Below the pieces are notes generated by a model that was not told the origin of the DNA, ran no database searches, and worked only from the letters and a program-made list of their open reading frames with translations. Shown piece by piece: positions 8,040-17,364 of a stretch of 64,000 bases of DNA. A program made the position numbers and the translations under genes. Source of the DNA: Longimicrobiales bacterium (GTDB lineage Bacteria > Gemmatimonadota > Gemmatimonadetes > Longimicrobiales > Gaopeijiaceae); the NCBI GenBank assembly GCA_965219445.1, contig CBDCNQ010000005.1:1504001-1568000 (forward strand), given 5' to 3'. Within the stretch, counting starts at the first letter, position 1, and every line of letters starts with the position of its first letter.

Positions 8040-8476
8040 GACGTCCCCCTGTCGACCAGCCAAATAGTGATCGAGTCTCGGTCGTGGCTGACGCGGAAGC
8101 GCGTCAGCGGCGCCTCGGCGGGCCCCTGCAGCACCTCCCCCGTAAACGCGAACTCGCTGCCGTGGCAGGGACAGACCAGACGGTCGCCTTCGGGCTCGGG
8201 CTGACACTGCCTGTGCGTGCACTCCACCAAGACCGCTGAGTACGCCCCCGGATCGGTCGTCCGCAAATAGACAGGTTTCGGCGTGCGGCTGCTCTCCACC
8301 AACACCCCAACGTCTTCGCCCAGAGCGGCGCGGGGCAGGACCAGGCGCCCGGGCTCTTCGGTCGCCCGGACGTACCTTAGGCCCACGCACCCTCCCGACG
8401 AGGCTACAAGACACGCACAAGCCGAGACAACGGGGAAGCGGCCCAGAAAGTCGCGCCGATCCATGGGCGCCCTCAT
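8036..8476 (-). CDS. Rieske [2Fe-2S] protein with Tat (lipo)protein leader
   Basis: DRRDFL leader; CTHRQC and CPCHGSEF boxes; GPA..PL. Confidence 0.9.
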   Translation of the reverse strand: MRAPMDRRDFLGRFPVVSACACLVASSGGCVGLRYVRATEEPGRLVLPRAALGEDVGVLVESSRTPKPVYLRTTDPGAYSAVLVECTHRQCQPEPEGDRLVCPCHGSEFAFTGEVLQGPAEAPLTRFRVSHDRDSITIWLVDRGTS

Positions 8477-9744
8477 CAGAGGGACCTCAAGAAGGTAAGG
8501 AGCTGTCCTTGCGAATCCGGCGTCAGCCCGCGGAAGGCGTCTCGGCTGGCCGCACCCTCACCGCCGTGCAGCTCAATGGCGTCCCGAAGCGTGCCGGCCC
8601 GTCCGTCATGGAGGTAGAAAGCCTTACCTCCTTGGAAGTTCTGTTGGATCCCGATGCCCCAAAGCGGCGGTGTCCTCCATTCGCTCGTCAGGGCGGATCC
8701 CTCCGTGTATCCGTCATCCAAGTCGGGCCCCATGTCGTGAAGGAGCAGGTCCGTGTAGGGATGGAAGACCACTTCGCTCAGAACCGCGATGTCCGAGAGG
8801 CCCGTCCTGAGGGTCGGGAAGTGACAGCCGGCACAGCCGATGTCGGTGAAGAGCTGCTCGCCGGCGCGCACGTCGGGGTCGTTCTCGTCCCGGCGGGCCG
8901 GGACCCGGAGGGTCTTCAGATAGAACACGACGTTCGCCACCACGCTGGACGCGACCTCGGGGTCCGGTGCGTCGTCCGACGTGCGAGCGCCTTGCAGGGG
9001 GTTGAACAGGTCCTCCACAAGAAGATCGCTCGTGACGCCCATGTCCTGCAGGTAGGCCCCCACCGTCTGATGGAGAAGGTTGACCGTCAGCGCCTTCTTG
9101 CCGAAGCGGCCGATGTAGCGACCGTCCACCAAGGTGCCCCTGGCGGCGGGACCAGGGCTGGACTGGGCCTCGAGCGCGACCACGTTCTCGATGAGGTCCG
9201 ATGGTTCGTGGAGCTGTACGCGACCGCTGATGCCGTCTCCGTCCAGGTCGTCCGGATCTGCGACGGCGAGGAGCGTGGCGTCGTCAACAGCATCGAGGAA
9301 GCCCAGGCCCGTTACCGCAGGAGGCATGAACGTCGCCACCCCGGTGGCCGCCGCGGGTAAGGTCTCCGGCGGATGGCCCGCGATGGATCGATTCTGGAGT
9401 TGCGGACCGCCGAACCCAGGCATCGGATCGAAGCCGTTGACGGTGGACCGGCCGAAACGTCGGAAGTTGAAGGCCGGGTGCCCCTTTCCGTCGCCGACGT
9501 GACACTGCTCGCACGACGTTGCGACGAAGATCGGGCCCAAGCCGTCGGAGACCGAGAATCGGCGTCCGAACTCCTCGTCGCCTAGGAGGTGAAGTCGGAT
9601 CTGGCCCGAGGTGAGGCCCTCGACGGTACCATCGAGGGCCTCGTTGTCGGGCGGAAGACCGGGCGTGACGATATCGCAGGCCGACAGGGCGACGACGAGA
9701 ACGGGCAGAACGGTGACCCACCCGGCGCGGTGGTGGCCCATCAT
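8476..9744 (-). CDS. Di-heme oxidoreductase (DHOR / thiol oxidoreductase) family lipoprotein
   Basis: Lipobox LSAC; CEQCH and CAGCH; GLGP, DGDGISGR, GRFG.KA, TDLLLHDMG, WRTPPLWG, LHDGRA. Confidence 0.9.
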   Translation of the reverse strand: MMGHHRAGWVTVLPVLVVALSACDIVTPGLPPDNEALDGTVEGLTSGQIRLHLLGDEEFGRRFSVSDGLGPIFVATSCEQCHVGDGKGHPAFNFRRFGRSTVNGFDPMPGFGGPQLQNRSIAGHPPETLPAAATGVATFMPPAVTGLGFLDAVDDATLLAVADPDDLDGDGISGRVQLHEPSDLIENVVALEAQSSPGPAARGTLVDGRYIGRFGKKALTVNLLHQTVGAYLQDMGVTSDLLVEDLFNPLQGARTSDDAPDPEVASSVVANVVFYLKTLRVPARRDENDPDVRAGEQLFTDIGCAGCHFPTLRTGLSDIAVLSEVVFHPYTDLLLHDMGPDLDDGYTEGSALTSEWRTPPLWGIGIQQNFQGGKAFYLHDGRAGTLRDAIELHGGEGAASRDAFRGLTPDSQGQLLTFLRSL

Positions 9745-10109: not shown

Positions 10110-10736
10110 TCAAGGAAGCTCGATAGCCGGGTTGACGTAGTCGGCCGCGAGGACCCGGTCGGGATCAGGACGCACGCTCAGGTAATCCACATGGTCGGGG
10201 ATGTTGGACCAACCATGCGGCACACCGGCTGGGATGATGACGACGTCGCCCACCTTCACGTCCTTGCTCTGCACATCACCCACGATTGTTCCGCTGCACG
10301 ACGGTCCGTTCAGAATGGTCGCCCCACGGCCGCCCGGTGCGGACTGGCGCCCGTTCATGATCTGGCCGCCGGTGACAAGTGTTCCACCGCCCGAGATGAT
10401 GACGTACGTCTCGGTCTGATAAAAGTGCAGGCCCCCCCTCGCGCCGCTCGGCGGACCATCGGATATTCCGCAAATCCGGGCCGGTGGCAGGGCTGCACCA
10501 CCACCACCACCGCCACGTCCGGCGCCGCCCGTGGCTCCTCGGTGAATCACGCCCACGGCGAGGTTGAGCTTCCCGATGTCCCGGCTGATGATCTGCCGAT
10601 CGGTCCCTGGAAGGGCATTCACCACCTGGACCTGCTCCGCAGTGATGTAGGTGGCAGACATGAGAGTCTGGGCAGTCACGCCGACGGGCAGCGCGAGAAG
10701 CGGTAAGACAAGCGTTGACCACGCTAGCGTTCTCAT
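10110..10736 (-). CDS. Secreted cupin-domain protein
   Basis: AAGGAG SD, signal peptide, H.YQTETYVIISGGG..GDVVIIPAGVPH. Confidence 0.8.
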   Translation of the reverse strand: MRTLAWSTLVLPLLALPVGVTAQTLMSATYITAEQVQVVNALPGTDRQIISRDIGKLNLAVGVIHRGATGGAGRGGGGGGAALPPARICGISDGPPSGARGGLHFYQTETYVIISGGGTLVTGGQIMNGRQSAPGGRGATILNGPSCSGTIVGDVQSKDVKVGDVVIIPAGVPHGWSNIPDHVDYLSVRPDPDRVLAADYVNPAIELP

Positions 10737-10921
10737 CGAACCCTCCTTGCTGAGTGGGAGGCCCAAGCTACGGGGCATGAGAAGGCGGGTCAAACGGGTG
10801 AGCTGAGACGCGTTCGGGGCGGTGGTGAGCAAGCTGTGGTTTCCTTGCTCACCAACCGTGTTGGTCGTACCCTGACTTCAGCGATCGCCTTCTCACTGAG
10901 CCGTACGAGCTGCCCCCAAAG

Positions 10922-13225
10922 ATGCCAGCACTGAGGAAGTTCCTCGACGAGATCCGCCACCCCTCCCTGTGGCAGGTGCTAGGTGTTTACCTAGCCGGTG
11001 GATGGGCGGTCTTCACGGTGATCCTCGACGTGTCCGAAGCGCTGCTGCTCCCGACGTGGGTCGTCCGGTACTCGCTAGCGCTACTGCTCGTCGGGCTGCC
11101 GATCACCCTCGTCACGTCGCACGTGCAGCAAGGGCTCTCGAAACGTGGCGTCGTGCCGCACAAGGGTATCCGACGCCTCTTCACGTGGCGGAACGCGCTC
11201 GTCAGTGGCGTGCTGGCTTTCGCGGCACTGGGGTTCGTTACGGCCGTGCGGATCGTGATGCCCGCCGCGCCGCCACAGCTTCCCGCGGGGAGTGCCGTGC
11301 CGCAGCTAGCGATCTTCCCAGCCACGGTCCGAGGGGGCGCCGACCCGGTCCTGCACGAGGGAATCGTAGACCTGCTACGTGGGAAGCTGGCAGTGATCTC
11401 CAACCTGCAGATCGTCGACCCCGGGACCGTGATCAAAGCCGCCGGCATGCAGTCGCAGGAGGTGGTGGTCGATGTGGCCCGTGCAGCTACCATCGCCAGC
11501 GAGCGTGGCTGGACTCTCTTCATACTCCCGGTAATCACGGCAAGCGGGGGAGAAATCCGCCTCCAGGCGTCTCTCTTCGACGTCGAGTCCACAGAGGAAC
11601 CGTTGGTCCTCGCCGAATCCGGGGGTGACGCCCTCGAGGTCTTCGCGCATATCGACGAGCTCGCCGTCGATCTCGTTCTCGCACAGTTCGGTCGGGCGAG
11701 CGCGCGGCTGGTGCGTTCCGCATTCCAGATGACCACTTCCGTTACCGCCTGGGAGAACTTCCTCCGGGGCGAGCAGGCGATGCGGAACTCACAGCACGAT
11801 GTGGCGGTCGAGGCGGACAACACGTTCGCGCTGGCGGAACTCCGGACCGCGATCGTCGCTGCCCTCATGGAAACGGACGGATCGTTCACGCATCTCGTGG
11901 GATCGGCGCCAAACGCGCTTCCGAGGGCTAGTGCACTCGTTGATCGACTCGACGAGCGTGACAGGGAGTTCCTCGCGGCTTACGAAGCGTTCCGTGCCGG
12001 CGAAGGCGACCGCGCCGAGGCGGCGTTCGAGGCTATGCTCATCGAACGGCCCGGAGACGTCGAGGCCCGTTTCTTTCTTGCGCAAACGCTCATGCGACTC
12101 AACCCAGCCCGGGGGCGCTCGGTGTTCGAAGCGCGGGCCGTATTCGAGGAGGTGCTGCGAGCCGACCCCGGCTTCACGTGCCCTATATGACCACTCTTAC
12201 AGCTCGTCGGGAGCGAGCATGACGCGGTAGCCTCAGACAGCCTCAACGCAATGCTTAAAGTGGTCCGCGGCTCGGGAAGACCCAATCATAATGACATGAT
12301 CAATACCGTCATGCGGGGTGACGATCAAACAGCCGAGGTGCTTTTCGCTCGCTTTGACGCCCGGCCGGCTGCCGTCAACTTGGCGTTTCCGATTCACGTC
12401 GCCGCCTGGGGCGGAGACTTTTCCATGGCGGTCAGGCTGGCCCAGGGATACACTCGGTCGGCGAACGCCGATCCGATCCGGCTCGCGGGGCACCTCAACC
12501 TCGCACGGCTCTTCGTGGCCCACGGAAGGTGGCGAGCCGCCGACGTCGAGCTCGAACGGGCCGCCGACGTCGACCTCGAGCAGGCACGCATGACACGAGC
12601 CGTCCTGGTGACCTTGCCTTTCCTATCCATCCCGCGCGACGACCTCGTGAGTGTGATGGAGGAGCTGCAGCGCTGGGCACCCTCAGTCCCGGAACAGGGA
12701 TCACCGCCAGAACGCGCGTACGATCAGCACGCTCGCCTCTATTTCATGGGTTTGCTGGCCTCGAAGTTGGGCGACGAGACGGGGGCTCTGGAATACGCGG
12801 ACGCGATCGAGGAACTCGGCGACGTTGCCGGGACCGCGGTACCTGGAGAGCTGGCGACAACGCTTCGGGCGGATGTCGCGTGGCGGCAGGGGAGCTCTCC
12901 TGCAGACGTTCTGCGCGCTCTCGAGCCCCTGCGCGGACAGGTCCCCGCGGTCCTCTGGGATCACCCGGCTTTCGGACAGGAGCACGCTCGGTATGTGCGG
13001 GCTTCGGCCCTCCACCGGGCCGGAGAGGACGCTGAGGCGCTTCGATGGCTCGAAGACACGTTCACCCTCACTCCTGGCACGGTGTACTACTTGGCTCCTA
13101 CCCGGTACCTAGCGGCCCAAGTGCTGGATGCCTCCGGTCGGGGCGAGCAGGCAGGCGAAGCCCGCGCAACGTACCGCGAACTTTGGGCGGATGCCGACGG
13201 GGGGATTTCGTTGCCCGGAGGCTGA
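10922..13225 (+). CDS. 3-TM membrane protein with TolB-like/FlgO-like domain and TPR-like repeats; in-frame TGA at 12188-12190 (candidate selenocysteine, 767 aa if read through)
   Basis: ORFs 10922-12190 and 12251-13225 share a frame and are separated by only one TGA in FTCPI-TGA-PLLQL; no SD before ATG 12251; helical repeats on both sides. Confidence 0.7.
12202..12218 (+). promoter_or_regulatory. Candidate bacterial SECIS hairpin
   Basis: GCTCG(T)-CGGGA-(G)CGAGC stem-loop beginning 11 nt after the in-frame TGA. Confidence 0.45.
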
Positions 13226-13266: not shown

Positions 13267-14496
13267 CTAGTTACCGTTCAGACGGATGAACTTCTGGATC
13301 CGGTGGCCGGTCTGCACCTCGCCGGTGTAGAGATTTCCCTGGGAATCGAAACCCATGTAGTGGAGCCAATCGAAATGGCCGGGTTGTTTTCCACCCGTAC
13401 CCCAGGAGTAAACAGGCTCGAGCGTCGCCCTATCCAGAGCCCACACCTTGTTGTTGGTACCGTCGGGCACGTAAAGGAACCGCTGCTCGGTATCGAGCGG
13501 GTCGAACTCGGCGCCCCACGTGGATCCGGGCCCGTACGTCTGCGGAGCGAGTTCGTTCTCCATGATGTAGGTCCCGTCCAACTCGAAGACCTGGAAGCGG
13601 TTGCTGGGACGGTCGCTCACGTAGACCCGCCGGTCGTTGGAGATAGCCAATCCGTGGACGGGTGTACGCCACGTGGTTGTTCGGGGAGCGTTCGGGTCCC
13701 ACGGGCCCGGATTCTCGTCCTTTGGAACTTCACCATAGGCTCCCCAATGTCGTTTGTACTCACCGGTATTCGCATCGAAGACGACCAGCCGCCGATTGCC
13801 GTAGCCATCCGCTACGTAGATTTCGTCGGTCTCGGGGTCCACCTCCATGGTGGCGGCTCGGTTGACCGAGTTCGGGTCATTGCTGCCCTGGCTCACACCG
13901 ACGTCCCCGATCTTAAGCACCAACTCGCCGTCCTGCGTGAACTTCATCATGTGATGGTCGTCGCCTCCGTTCCCGGCGACCCACACGAATCCCTGGTAGT
14001 CCACATGAATTCCGTGCTCGCTGTTGAACCACTGGTATTCCCCGCCGGGATCATCGCCGCCCCAGGCTTGGATGACTTCCCCCGCCGGGTTGAACGCCAA
14101 CACGGGTGGCGCCGTCGTGCAGCAGAGCGATTGGACCGGATCGCTGCCCCACGATTGGTCTCGGGTGGTCATCGGCGGCGTCGAGCCGGCATTCGTACCC
14201 TGCACGGTGAACGGCCTGTGGATGATCCAGAGGTTGTCATTGCTGTCGATGGAGGTGCCGGCGACCTGCCCTATGATCCAGTTGTTGGGAAGGGGTTGGG
14301 GCCAGAACGGGTCGACCGCGAACTGCGCCACGCCTTCCGGCACCCCGGGGCCCGACGCGTCCGCGGGCATATTGGGCATGGAAGACGCCATCGCGGAAGA
14401 CGACATCCCGCCGTCGTCCATCCCGCATGCCGATGTGGCGAGGACCATTATCGATGTTACCAAGACTGCGCGAATCCAAGCTTGAGATCGGTTCAT
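13267..14496 (-). CDS. NHL-repeat beta-propeller lipoprotein (peptidyl-hydroxyglycine lyase-like)
   Basis: Lipobox TSAC; VDPFWPQPLPNNW, EHGIHVD, YVADGYGNRR, VYVSDR, DSQGNLYTGEV. Confidence 0.8.
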   Translation of the reverse strand: MNRSQAWIRAVLVTSIMVLATSACGMDDGGMSSSAMASSMPNMPADASGPGVPEGVAQFAVDPFWPQPLPNNWIIGQVAGTSIDSNDNLWIIHRPFTVQGTNAGSTPPMTTRDQSWGSDPVQSLCCTTAPPVLAFNPAGEVIQAWGGDDPGGEYQWFNSEHGIHVDYQGFVWVAGNGGDDHHMMKFTQDGELVLKIGDVGVSQGSNDPNSVNRAATMEVDPETDEIYVADGYGNRRLVVFDANTGEYKRHWGAYGEVPKDENPGPWDPNAPRTTTWRTPVHGLAISNDRRVYVSDRPSNRFQVFELDGTYIMENELAPQTYGPGSTWGAEFDPLDTEQRFLYVPDGTNNKVWALDRATLEPVYSWGTGGKQPGHFDWLHYMGFDSQGNLYTGEVQTGHRIQKFIRLNGN

Positions 14497-14607: not shown

Positions 14608-15723
14608 TCAGTCGAGCAATCGCAGTGGCATCACCAGGCAAAGATAGTCTTCCGCCTCTTCGCCCTCCGCCGGAACCGGCTCGATGGTCGCGGCCCGCTC
14701 TGGAGCCTTGAGCGTGATTTTTACCTCGTCGGTGGACATGTACTTCAGCACCTCGAGTAAATACGCCGCATTGAATCCGATTTCGATTCCCTCTCCTTCA
14801 TACGTCAACTCCAGCTCGTCCTCTCCCTCGCCGAGATCCGGTGTGAGGACGTTCAGATGGACTCGATCGGACTCGAAAGCCATGCGGATCCGGTGCGTTT
14901 GGTCGCTCGCAACCACCGCCATACGGCGGACCGCGGATGTCAGCGCACCCTTTGCGACGATCGCAAACTTATCGTTGTCCTTCGGAATTACTTGTTCGTA
15001 GTTGGGGTATGTCCCTTCAATGAGCCTGGTATAGACTTCGGTGCCATCCGCCCGAAATCCGAGATGGTTACCGCTCTTGGCGACCTCGAGGGTCTCCTTA
15101 CTCTCGAAGAGACGCTGAACTTGCTGAAGTGCGATCGGGGGTACTATGAAGTCTTCGCTAGGGGCGCTAGACGAACCCGCAGCGACGCCCTTCCTAGCAA
15201 GGCGGTGCCCGTTCGTCGCAACCATACGCATGTGCCCGTCTCTCAACTCCCAAAGCACACCATTGAGGATCGGCCGGCTCTCCTCGGAGGAAACCGCAAA
15301 CGCGGTGTTCTTGATCAAACCGTGGAGGTCTCCACCTTGAACGCTCCATCCCTGCTCGAAGTCCACCTCCGGCAGTGTGGGAAAGGCATCACTTGGAAGA
15401 CCATTGAGCTTGAAGTGGCTCTTTCCGCACCTCAATTCGATTTGATCGCCTCGGGTACTCAACTCCACGGGTTGCTCCGCTAATTCCTTCACGATTTCCT
15501 GGAGCTTCTTTCCAGGCGCAGTGATGCTCCCTTGCTCCTTCACTTCCGCGGGAACCCATACGCGAACTGCTACATCCAGGTCAGTGCCACTCAACGAAAT
15601 CCCGTCTTCTCCGGCTTCGAAAAGGATATTCGAGAGAACGGGAAGAGTTGTCTTCGTCGGAATGCTCGCAGAAACGGCGGCAAGCCCCGTATGCAGGTTC
15701 TGCCGAGTGATCAAGCAATTCAT
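14608..15723 (-). CDS. dnaN: DNA polymerase III beta clamp
   Basis: LPVLSNI, GTDLD, SRPILNGV, ATNGHRLA, RLIEG.YPNY, MPLRL. Confidence 0.98.
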   Translation of the reverse strand: MNCLITRQNLHTGLAAVSASIPTKTTLPVLSNILFEAGEDGISLSGTDLDVAVRVWVPAEVKEQGSITAPGKKLQEIVKELAEQPVELSTRGDQIELRCGKSHFKLNGLPSDAFPTLPEVDFEQGWSVQGGDLHGLIKNTAFAVSSEESRPILNGVLWELRDGHMRMVATNGHRLARKGVAAGSSSAPSEDFIVPPIALQQVQRLFESKETLEVAKSGNHLGFRADGTEVYTRLIEGTYPNYEQVIPKDNDKFAIVAKGALTSAVRRMAVVASDQTHRIRMAFESDRVHLNVLTPDLGEGEDELELTYEGEGIEIGFNAAYLLEVLKYMSTDEVKITLKAPERAATIEPVPAEGEEAEDYLCLVMPLRLLD

Positions 15724-15984: not shown

Positions 15985-17364
15985 TCAAGATCCTCTCCCG
16001 ATTTCTGCACGTACGCCCTCAACCGTTTGGCGGAACTCGGCGTCGACGCTCATCGCGTCCTCGACTTTGCGAATCGAGTGGATTACCGTCGAGTGATCAC
16101 GGTCCCCGAATAGCTGACCGATGTGTACGAGAGAGTAGTCCAACAGATCTCTGATCAGGTACATGGCAACCTGGCGAGGGACCGTCAAGTCTTTGGTCCT
16201 TCGCTTCGAACTGAGAGCTTCTTCGCGGACTTGCCAGCGTGTCGCGACCGCTCTGCGGATGTGTTCGGCACCCAACACGGAGCCGGTGTTCCCCGAGGCA
16301 CTCCCGAAGCTTCCATGTAGCGCCTTGCGTGCAAGATCCACGGAAATCTCTTGATTCGTAATGGATGAATAGGCCAGTAACTTGATGATCGCCCCTTCGA
16401 GTTCGCGGACCGAGGACGTACAAAACTGTGCGATGAAGTCCATCACGTCGTGAGAGACCATGAGTCCGTCGTCGGCGGCCTTCTTGCGTAAGATGGCAAC
16501 CCGGGTTTCGTAGTCGGGCGACTTAATGTCGGCGACTAGGCCCCACTCGAACCTCGAAATGAGCCTCTCCTCGAGGCCGGGAATCTCCTTGGGAGGCCGA
16601 TCGCTCGTGAGTACGATCTGCTTTCGGGCATCATAGAGGGCGTTGAACGTATGGAAGAACTCCTCCTGGGTGCGCTCCTTGCCCCTGAGGAACTGAATAT
16701 CGTCGACGAGCAGGAGGTCCATCTGGCGGTATCGCCGACGGAACTCGGCCGTGGTTCCCTGCTGAATGGCAGTGACGAGGTCGTTGGTGAACTGTTCGCT
16801 TGGGACGTAGGCGATCCGCATGGTGGGGTCGGCCAGTAGCACGGCGTTCCCGATCGCGTGCATGAGGTGCGTCTTTCCGAGACCTACACCGCCGTAGAGG
16901 AAAAGAGGGTTGTATGTGAGGGCCGGTTGGTCGGCGACGGCATGGCACGCGGCCGTGGCGAGTTGATTGTTGTTTCCCACAACAAATCGCTCGAACGCGT
17001 AACGCTCGTTCAGTGACGGGGGAGGTCCGTCCCGGTCGGCCCCAGGTGCCGGCGGGCCGGCTCCAAGTGCGTGCGGGGTGACCTCGATGGTGGGCATCGG
17101 GGGCGCCGCGGCCGGGTCGGCGCAACGGAAGGTAAGGGTCAGAGGGCGACCCAGGATCTGCTGAATCACCTCCGAGAGGAGGGGTCCGTACCTATGGCCA
17201 ATCCACTCGACATGGAATTGGCTCGGTACCTCGACAAGAATCTCCGAGTCGGTGACCCCCACCGCGGAGGTGCCGGCGAGCCACGTGCGGTATGTCTGTC
17301 CCTGGAGTCTGTCTCGGGTTGCCTCGAGAACCCGGGACCAGAGCTCGTCGGCCGTGAACTCCAT
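15985..17364 (-). CDS. dnaA: Chromosomal replication initiator DnaA
   Basis: YNPLFLYGGVGLGKTHL, LLVDDIQF, QEEFFHTFN, RDHSTVIH. Confidence 0.99.
   Translation of the reverse strand: MEFTADELWSRVLEATRDRLQGQTYRTWLAGTSAVGVTDSEILVEVPSQFHVEWIGHRYGPLLSEVIQQILGRPLTLTFRCADPAAAPPMPTIEVTPHALGAGPPAPGADRDGPPPSLNERYAFERFVVGNNNQLATAACHAVADQPALTYNPLFLYGGVGLGKTHLMHAIGNAVLLADPTMRIAYVPSEQFTNDLVTAIQQGTTAEFRRRYRQMDLLLVDDIQFLRGKERTQEEFFHTFNALYDARKQIVLTSDRPPKEIPGLEERLISRFEWGLVADIKSPDYETRVAILRKKAADDGLMVSHDVMDFIAQFCTSSVRELEGAIIKLLAYSSITNQEISVDLARKALHGSFGSASGNTGSVLGAEHIRRAVATRWQVREEALSSKRRTKDLTVPRQVAMYLIRDLLDYSLVHIGQLFGDRDHSTVIHSIRKVEDAMSVDAEFRQTVEGVRAEIGRGS

Follow-up and report, generated by a model that had tools for sequence, protein, structure and literature searches.

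A conserved in-frame UGA marks a candidate selenoprotein family among membrane-anchored tetratricopeptide repeat proteins of Gemmatimonadota

Are two open reading frames (ORFs) that share one frame and are parted by a single TGA two genes, or one gene whose apparent stop is read as selenocysteine (Sec)? The question is raised by positions 10922-13225 of a stretch of 64,000 nucleotides from a Longimicrobiales bacterium (GenBank assembly GCA_965219445.1, contig CBDCNQ010000005.1, positions 1,504,001 to 1,568,000), which as a whole is called the window here. A preliminary description, made from the letters of the window alone, had proposed a new selenoprotein with a CxxU motif inside a membrane-anchored, TolB-like tetratricopeptide repeat (TPR) receptor. 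On the sequence evidence presented below, 10922-13225 is very probably one gene, in which UGA 12188-12190 is decoded as Sec to give a membrane-anchored TPR protein of 767 residues.

Translation of the locus confirmed the arrangement described. The ORF 10922..12190 (422 codons and the TGA) and the ORF 12251..13225 lie in one shared frame, TGA 12188-12190 is the sole interruption between them and the 20 codons at 12191-12250 are open. The read-through product of 10922-13225 measures 767 amino acids, terminates at TGA 13223-13225, reads DPGFT-C420-P-I-U423-PLLQL at the junction and has Cys420 as its single cysteine. The second ORF had also been said to lack a Shine-Dalgarno sequence; inspection of the sequence indeed found no GGAGG-like element before ATG 12251, and none before the main start at 10922 either, so that this argument is a weak one. 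TGA is the commonest ordinary stop in the genome of the window (517 of 959 long ORFs) and also ends the gene itself, which excludes a reassigned code. As to the base call, positions 12188-12190 are identical in contigs of runs X1 and X2 (study P1) and X5 (study P2), where X1 is possibly the sample from which the window derives. Another contig of X5, a diverged one, has changes at 12184, 12199 and 12226; each is a synonymous third-position change when the frame is read through, and two fall after the TGA. Among the runs listed for the stretch, none was of RNA. In a TPR helix at residues ~292-298 (about 11795-11815) the window protein is without seven residues (LEAFQAA) of its closest relatives, and its N-terminal part is therefore 422 rather than 429 amino acids long.

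The conservation of the TGA carries this reading. A census of the window, 61 relatives, a 401-genome sample of the order and a 301-genome sample of the phylum yielded 21 verified loci from 19 genomes, all of which have the in-frame TGA within [C/U]PIU; homology extends to either side of it at identities down to ~30%. All 21 translated loci have the motif F-x-[C/U]-P-I-U, and none shows a gap or a frame change at the junction. In three members of the same genus, G005 (83% identity), G008 (81%) and G010 (74%), residues 1-767 are matched and one in-frame TGA is present in each. The TGA also occurs in members of the order at ~30-40% identity (G140, G079, G195 and G094, and two loci each in G050 and G060, whose copies are ~31% identical), and homology to the distant members spans residues 4-760. 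Furthermore, other families of the same class have the TGA form, with one locus each in G462, G514, G496, G597, G419, G555, G436, G552 and G431. A second G514 locus and G517, the sequences of which were not fetched, are not counted among the 21. One further locus flagged with one TGA, G034:C21, was dropped, as no [C/U]PxU was found in the open frame there. Two loci, in G079 (L050) and G496 (L084), read U-P-I-U, the Cys codon being replaced by a further TGA; reading the TGA as a stop cannot accommodate these double-Sec variants. In addition, the stretch of 20 codons that separates the TGA from ATG 12251 is conserved at the protein level, its changes being synonymous.

In protein sets the family appears cut at this codon. 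Among its near relatives in a set of 5.8 billion proteins, 10 of 11 are calls of 428-429 amino acids that end in ...CPI and the 11th is frameshifted, while in a set of 1.84 billion proteins the best 150 representatives include 11 that stop after CP[I/L], at query residue 422. The preliminary description had asked whether homologues that match on either side of this column hold a conserved TGA or a Cys there, and ones with Cys exist as well: CxxC stands at columns 420 and 423 in 9 of the 133 full-length representatives aligned to the query, in the forms CPIC, CPRC, CPVC, CVVC, CALC, CVYC (twice), CIHC and CIRC, and the genomic locus L053 reads CPTC with a TGC codon at the Sec column. The remaining 124 of the 133 have no Cys at the site and typically read [AS]-L-x-H-L. 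In a FastTree tree of 142 rows, a quick and unrooted one made with no approximately unbiased test, the nine Sec rows and eight of the nine CxxC rows form one clade (SH-like support 99) with no other row inside, Sec and Cys forms being interleaved; the CxxC row P0040 is placed elsewhere. A whole-protein match of 82% identity was found in a metagenome-assembled genome of Longimicrobiales (Gemmatimonadota). Two weak Kiritimatiellales TPR matches from a single-protein search of the locus were judged not to be family members.

The surroundings of the codon are constrained as well. The Ile codon just before the UGA (12185-12187 in the window) is ATA in 21 of 21 loci (the window, L023-L027, L049-L051, L055, L076, L077 and L082-L090), and ATA makes up 6% of the Ile codons in long ORFs of the window's genome; the invariance suggests a constraint at the nucleotide level on the 5' context of the UGA. 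The residues that set the Sec/CxxC clade apart are F418, C420, P421, U/C423, R154 (Gly in the window protein), A387, P675, A689, D236 and D293. The non-Cys homologues have a His right after the Sec column (position 424) in 114 of 134 rows and a Glu at 689 in 81 of 124, both of which the clade has lost; in those homologues the two residues may form a paired contact or an alternative functional site. With a conserved His kept next to the Sec column by the non-Cys majority, the site seems functionally important in both kinds of protein. Frameshifts were seen in two relatives, in P0009 just before CPI-TGA and in G010:C127 (L025) near residue 550, and these may be assembly errors or decaying copies.

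A putative selenocysteine insertion sequence (SECIS) follows the codon. In all 21 loci a 17-nt hairpin with a 6-bp stem and a 5-nt loop starts exactly 11 nt after the UGA, its loop reading CGGGA, CGUGC, CGGGC, GGUCG or CGUGA; folding energies are -9.2 to -16 kcal/mol (nt 9-45) and the distance from UGA to loop is 17 nt. The consensus bacterial SECIS (bSECIS), as given in the Fig. 2 legend of the review PMC13188914, has a loop of 3-9 nt, a stem of 4-16 bp, a G in the first two loop positions, a UGA-to-loop distance of 16-37 nt and a minimum free energy (MFE) of <= -7.5 kcal/mol. The hairpin agrees with the constraints quoted in that legend, with its loop of 5 nt, its stem of 6 bp and a G that stands first or second in the loop and is followed by G or U. 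In the 21-row alignment A4, standard pairs occupy 125 of 126 pair cells, and sliding the 3' arm by 1-3 columns leaves 32-58% paired. The closing pair 30-46 is C-G in 15 rows and G-C in six, the next pair 31-45 is C-G in 20 rows and U-A in one, and the innermost pair is C-G in 17 and U-G in four. The G/C swap affects a third codon position on one arm and a first position on the other, the codons concerned encoding unrelated residues, and is thus not explained by constraint on the protein. As a control, the same register was examined in homologous loci: 12 of 12 TGA loci tested form 6 of 6 pairs and none of the 30 loci without TGA does, the best of these having five pairs and the rest at most four.

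The genome of the window (4.56 Mb) encodes the machinery for decoding. There are no sel genes inside the 64-kb window, as had been noted before, all of them being located elsewhere in the genome, where the suggested check for them was successful: selA (526 bits), selB (330 bits), selD (375 bits) and a tRNA-Sec with anticodon TCA (69 bits) all score above their curated cut-offs, and selD contains an in-frame TGA of its own, reading GAG-U-ACK. The selD locus (G000:C5:87120-88043, L001) has a hairpin ~30 nt after its UGA, the GGUCC loop of which resembles the GGUCG loop of the G050 and G060 receptor copies. Beyond this genome, selA is over the cut-off in 10 of 10 TGA-carrying genomes tested and in 282 of 401 genomes of the order (by family, 209/256 in f1, 5/71 in f2 and 69/73 in f3), a tally that counts the unpublished genome G127, which bears on no other result here. 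Family f2, poor in selA, yielded no TGA form, though module homologues are present in 23 of its 71 genomes. The preliminary description had named a lack of Sec machinery, unrelated residues or TAA/TAG at the column and a base-call error as grounds for giving the idea up; the idea withstood a check against each.

Several observations weigh against Sec decoding or lessen the force of the evidence for it. The hairpin of G555 forms only 5 of 6 pairs, and the loop is at odds with the N1-N2 pairing, itself optional, of the bSECIS loop pattern seen most often. The stability of the hairpin is ordinary (MFE of 12188-12235 is -12 kcal/mol against a mean of -12.3 for shuffled sequences, z = 0.12), so that what speaks for it is its conservation, its covariation and its confinement to TGA members. 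No more than two of the six pairs show compensatory change, and with rows that are related to one another, shuffle statistics on the pairing overstate its significance. Moreover, selA is common in the order, which makes its co-occurrence with the TGA form weak evidence. One could accordingly take the TGA for a true stop and the split for a conserved one, the two subunits being a membrane TPR protein of 422 residues and a second TPR protein of 324 residues translated from ATG 12251: gene callers throughout the public sets give products of 428-429 and about 324 amino acids, TGA is the commonest stop of the genome and some truncated product is expected even with Sec decoding. This arrangement is nevertheless very improbable, as the frame at the junction is never shifted or gapped over 21 loci down to 30% identity, the codons from the TGA to ATG 12251 evolve as protein by synonymous change, the Met downstream is not conserved in distant members, C-terminal starts are called at varying places, the UPIU variants would terminate three codons earlier, the CxxC homologues run through uninterrupted, a hairpin specific to TGA forms lies at SECIS distance and the structural model described below is one continuous solenoid. 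Stem-loops after leaky stops can stimulate read-through, and the hairpin might merely slow the ribosome while a near-cognate Trp or Cys tRNA, or another recoding event, passes the stop without selenium. There is little to recommend this either: the column holds only TGA or Cys codons within the clade and never Trp, the geometry and the G-containing loop fit the quoted bSECIS constraints, selA is present in all 10 TGA genomes tested and f2, with its 5/71 selA and 23/71 module homologues, has shown no TGA form. A single in-frame stop also looks like a recent nonsense mutation, and frameshifts do occur in P0009 and the G010 orthologue; however, a pseudogene or a base-call error in one genome is effectively refuted by the same codon in 19 genomes and at least 11 separate 50%-identity clusters, by the agreement of contigs from two studies and by purifying selection on both halves.

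With Sec decoding as the preferred reading, the protein can be considered as a whole; its parts are listed with the other features of the locus in Table 1. That it is a 767-aa protein with three transmembrane helices and a repeat domain, as first described, holds by translation, hydropathy and an AlphaFold2 model. Hydrophobic stretches at ~16-34, 41-59 and 94-112 are read as three transmembrane helices, for which the model, built from 55 sequences (pLDDT 87.3, pTM 0.79), gives N-terminal helices at 14-40, 46-73 and 89-112. In the model the solenoid at 237-754 is all-helical, with pLDDT mostly >85, and is unbroken across residue 423, in keeping with the earlier remark that helical repeats continue over the junction. 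The model has helix 403-414 followed by a loop that holds Cys420, with Sec423 in the first turn of helix 422-431, the local pLDDT being 90-93. A TPR scaffold rather than a thioredoxin fold had been expected around the motif, and this was borne out: Pfam matched TPR families only (TPR_19, PF14559, 32.2 bits against a cut-off of 25, residues 357-394), and Foldseek of the whole model against the PDB returned only generic TPR superhelices (48 matches with E <= 0.001, TM-score 0.13-0.28). The label TolB-like fared less evenly: one homologue (P0017) comes close to the TolB_N family (PF04052) with 21.6 bits over residues 127-225 against a cut-off of 22.4, which lends the term weak support, whereas the window protein itself has no TolB_N match at E <= 1. 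A partial match over residues 158-373 to TIGR04510 (putative peptide-modification-system cyclase; 47.7 bits, cut-off 400) is best read as a common sensor module, with the window protein outside that family. The scan of the read-through protein against NCBIfam release 20.0 gave five weak and unrelated families, none above its cut-off, and no selenoprotein model.

Table 1. Features of the candidate selenoprotein locus in the window.
Feature	Position	Strand	Basis or details
Complete candidate selenoprotein gene	10922..13225	+	767 codons including putative Sec423, then true stop TGA 13223-13225; full-length homology
N-terminal membrane anchor, residues ~16-112, three predicted transmembrane helices	10967..11257	+	hydropathy; model helices
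Predicted alpha/beta domain, residues ~128-236, TolB_N-like	11303..11629	+	model strands 128-131, 135-138 and 199-236 with helices between
Predicted TPR / alpha-solenoid, residues ~237-754, continuous across the UGA	11630..13183	+	Pfam TPR_19, model, Foldseek
C-P-I-U motif, TGC CCT ATA TGA (Cys420 to Sec423)	12179..12190	+	[C/U]PIU in 21/21 verified TGA loci
Candidate Sec-UGA codon	12188..12190	+	conserved in-frame TGA
SECIS-like hairpin	12202..12218	+	5' arm 12202-12207 GCUCGU; loop 12208-12212 CGGGA; 3' arm 12213-12218 GCGAGC; spacer 12191-12201

The relatives give the best indication of what the module might do. The N-terminal ~75 residues, with two of the transmembrane helices, are 40-50% identical to the start of many ~800-aa paralogues in each genome of the order, which suggests a large paralogous receptor family with one common membrane anchor. 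In other relatives the same module follows one transmembrane helix behind a Ser/Thr kinase, a CHAT domain or a Trans_reg_C-BTAD-AAA_16 arrangement. The kinase-fused proteins include Sec forms (P0034 and the UPIU form of G079, L050) and CxxC forms (P0031, P0033 and P0040), and the protein of the window is a member of the same clade as the kinase-fused Sec forms, without kinase and with three transmembrane helices. As the kinase must face the cytoplasm and the module lies beyond one transmembrane helix, the TPR module is most simply predicted to be extracytoplasmic. The extracytoplasmic position of the repeat domain proposed at the outset is indirectly supported in this way, by relatives in which the module comes after the membrane helix that follows a cytoplasmic kinase, CHAT or BTAD-AAA part; by analogy, these fusions suggest that the module is an extracytoplasmic sensor.

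If the gene is decoded as we propose, SelB with Sec-tRNA(Sec) would, when the UGA occupies the A site of the ribosome, recognise the hairpin and bring about the insertion of Sec, and where insertion failed the truncated product of 422 residues would be released. As Sec insertion competes with termination, the selenium supply would, if this is true, set the ratio of the full-length to the 422-residue product. Anchored by the three N-terminal helices, the alpha/beta and TPR module would come to lie on the outer side of the cytoplasmic membrane, where Cys420 and Sec423 might form a reversible selenyl-sulfide that serves as a redox- or thiol-reactive switch of the sensor module. A redox switch at C420/U423 is a tentative assignment, possible yet somewhat short of probable. 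More doubtful still is the wider proposal of a Gemmatimonadota class of transmembrane receptors (with three membrane helices, fused to a kinase, or perhaps CHAT/BTAD-ATPase) that sense the outside through a Cys-x-x-Sec, or sometimes Sec-x-x-Sec, selenyl-sulfide switch in a TPR helix; if true, this would be the first selenoprotein family devoted to signal perception and not to catalysis.

Several results count against the redox function as proposed: no thioredoxin-family match to the read-through protein was found in Pfam or NCBIfam, the motif lying between two TPR helices; no clade-specific His, Met or further Cys ligand is present among the residues that distinguish the clade; and the flanking genes, for a cupin (10110-10832, -) and an NHL-repeat protein (13267-14496), are on the opposite strand, which leaves the gene with no operon partner. 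The same selenoprotein might instead bind a soft metal or metalloid (Cu(I), Hg, As, Zn) at its C-x-x-U, the receptor sensing or sequestering the ion. Table 1 of PMC13188914 attributes CxxC, CxxU and UxxU motifs that lie outside a thioredoxin fold to metal-binding selenoproteins (putative mercuric transport protein, metal-binding protein UxxU, cation ATPase). The existence of UPIU variants and an extracytoplasmic position, where a dithiol would otherwise oxidise, fit such a site; the lack of an extra conserved ligand in the clade and of metal-resistance genes beside the gene does not. We regard a metal site as unlikely, while noting that it is computationally indistinguishable from a redox switch. 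A catalytic CxxU, by which the protein would act as a periplasmic thiol-disulfide oxidoreductase on a TPR-held peptide in the manner of CcmH (RCxxC) with CcmI (TPR), appears distinctly improbable. Several homologues do match the CcmH/CycH TPR family PF23914 with 20-25 bits, and ~1.2 kb upstream, on the opposite strand, there is a gene for a di-haem oxidoreductase; on the other hand, every PF23914 match is far below the cut-off of 42, the module is typically fused to kinase, CHAT or BTAD-AAA parts, for which a sensor is a better fit than an enzyme, and 124 of the 133 family members have no Cys at the site.

This di-haem oxidoreductase/peroxidase gene (DHOR, E 3e-60) was identified at 8476-9744 on the - strand and, like the cupin gene, is upstream of the candidate gene. 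Just downstream of the candidate gene are dnaN (14608-15723) and dnaA (15985-17364), both on the - strand; these two genes make it probable that the origin region of chromosomal replication falls within the window.

The selenoproteins known from prokaryotes are almost all redox enzymes, and most of them have thioredoxin-like folds. Sec in the TPR scaffold of a receptor module that is joined to kinases in relatives would point to selenium-based sensing at the cell surface. Table 1 of a 2026 review (PMC13188914) counts 119 prokaryotic selenoprotein families and subfamilies, and the available part of it has no TPR, receptor-kinase or similar entry. In the available passages of that review and of the deep-Sep paper (PMC12013277), the words 'TPR' and 'tetratricopeptide' are absent and 'kinase' occurs only for PSTK. 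We found no published TPR or receptor selenoprotein in the literature, where supplementary tables of PMC12013277 or of metagenome selenoproteome papers could list one under a generic name, and an annotation may exist in GenBank alone. Judging from the sequences, we have high confidence that the gene is a genuine and conserved one for a selenoprotein. The family, with its Sec in the TPR scaffold of a putative membrane receptor, is missing from the selenoprotein lists compared. Its genes are systematically mis-annotated, appearing as two truncated ORFs in the protein sets searched, and surveys at the protein level therefore miss the family. Its naturally occurring Sec, Cys and double-Sec forms are material for testing what Sec contributes, and the very compact putative SECIS (17 nt, 11 nt after the UGA, with a rare AUA before it) could be useful for the study of Sec decoding outside Proteobacteria.

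How does the locus compare with known systems? The prototype of decoding by SelB through a SECIS within the ORF is E. coli fdhF, and the 17-nt hairpin 11 nt after the UGA presumably resembles the minimal fdhF SECIS. With bacterial SelB/SECIS genes the locus shares the in-frame UGA, a stem-loop downstream of it within the ORF, Cys homologues and selA, selB, selC and selD in the genome. It differs from them in that its product is not among the enzymes of known selenoprotein families, the short hairpin has no evident lower stem or bulged U, and an invariant rare ATA precedes the UGA. In cytochrome c maturation, CcmH (RCxxC) and CcmI (TPR) are membrane-anchored, periplasmic proteins in which a CxxC-type motif outside the thioredoxin fold works together with TPRs; the window protein has no significant sequence match to them (PF23914 is found in homologues only, below cut-off), a different architecture and no ccm gene context.

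The CxxU/UxxC selenoproteins of thioredoxin-like fold (SelW-like, AhpD-like, Prx-like and others in the available part of PMC13188914 Table 1) are alike in having, as modelled here, the Cys in a loop and the Sec in the first turn of a helix, and Sec and Cys alternate among their relatives too. In contrast to them, the window protein is a large, all-alpha TPR solenoid, membrane-anchored and predicted to be extracytoplasmic, and most of its homologues have no Cys at the site. The nearest entry in spirit in that part of the table is the FCYXU-type TonB-dependent receptor, likewise a recently predicted envelope receptor with a CxxU preceded by Phe outside the classical redox folds. It is, however, an outer-membrane beta-barrel with F-C-Y-x-U, whereas the window protein is an inner-membrane TPR protein with F-x-C-P-I-U and has no NCBIfam match to NF049945, the model of that receptor. 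The uncharacterised Ser/Thr kinase-transmembrane-TolB_N-like-TPR receptors of Gemmatimonadota and relatives have the same module at 28-34% identity over residues ~90-760; in the window protein the kinase is lacking and an N-terminal anchor of three transmembrane helices is found instead, and some of these receptors carry CPIU, UPIU or CxxC at the very same site (P0034, L050, P0031, P0033 and P0040).

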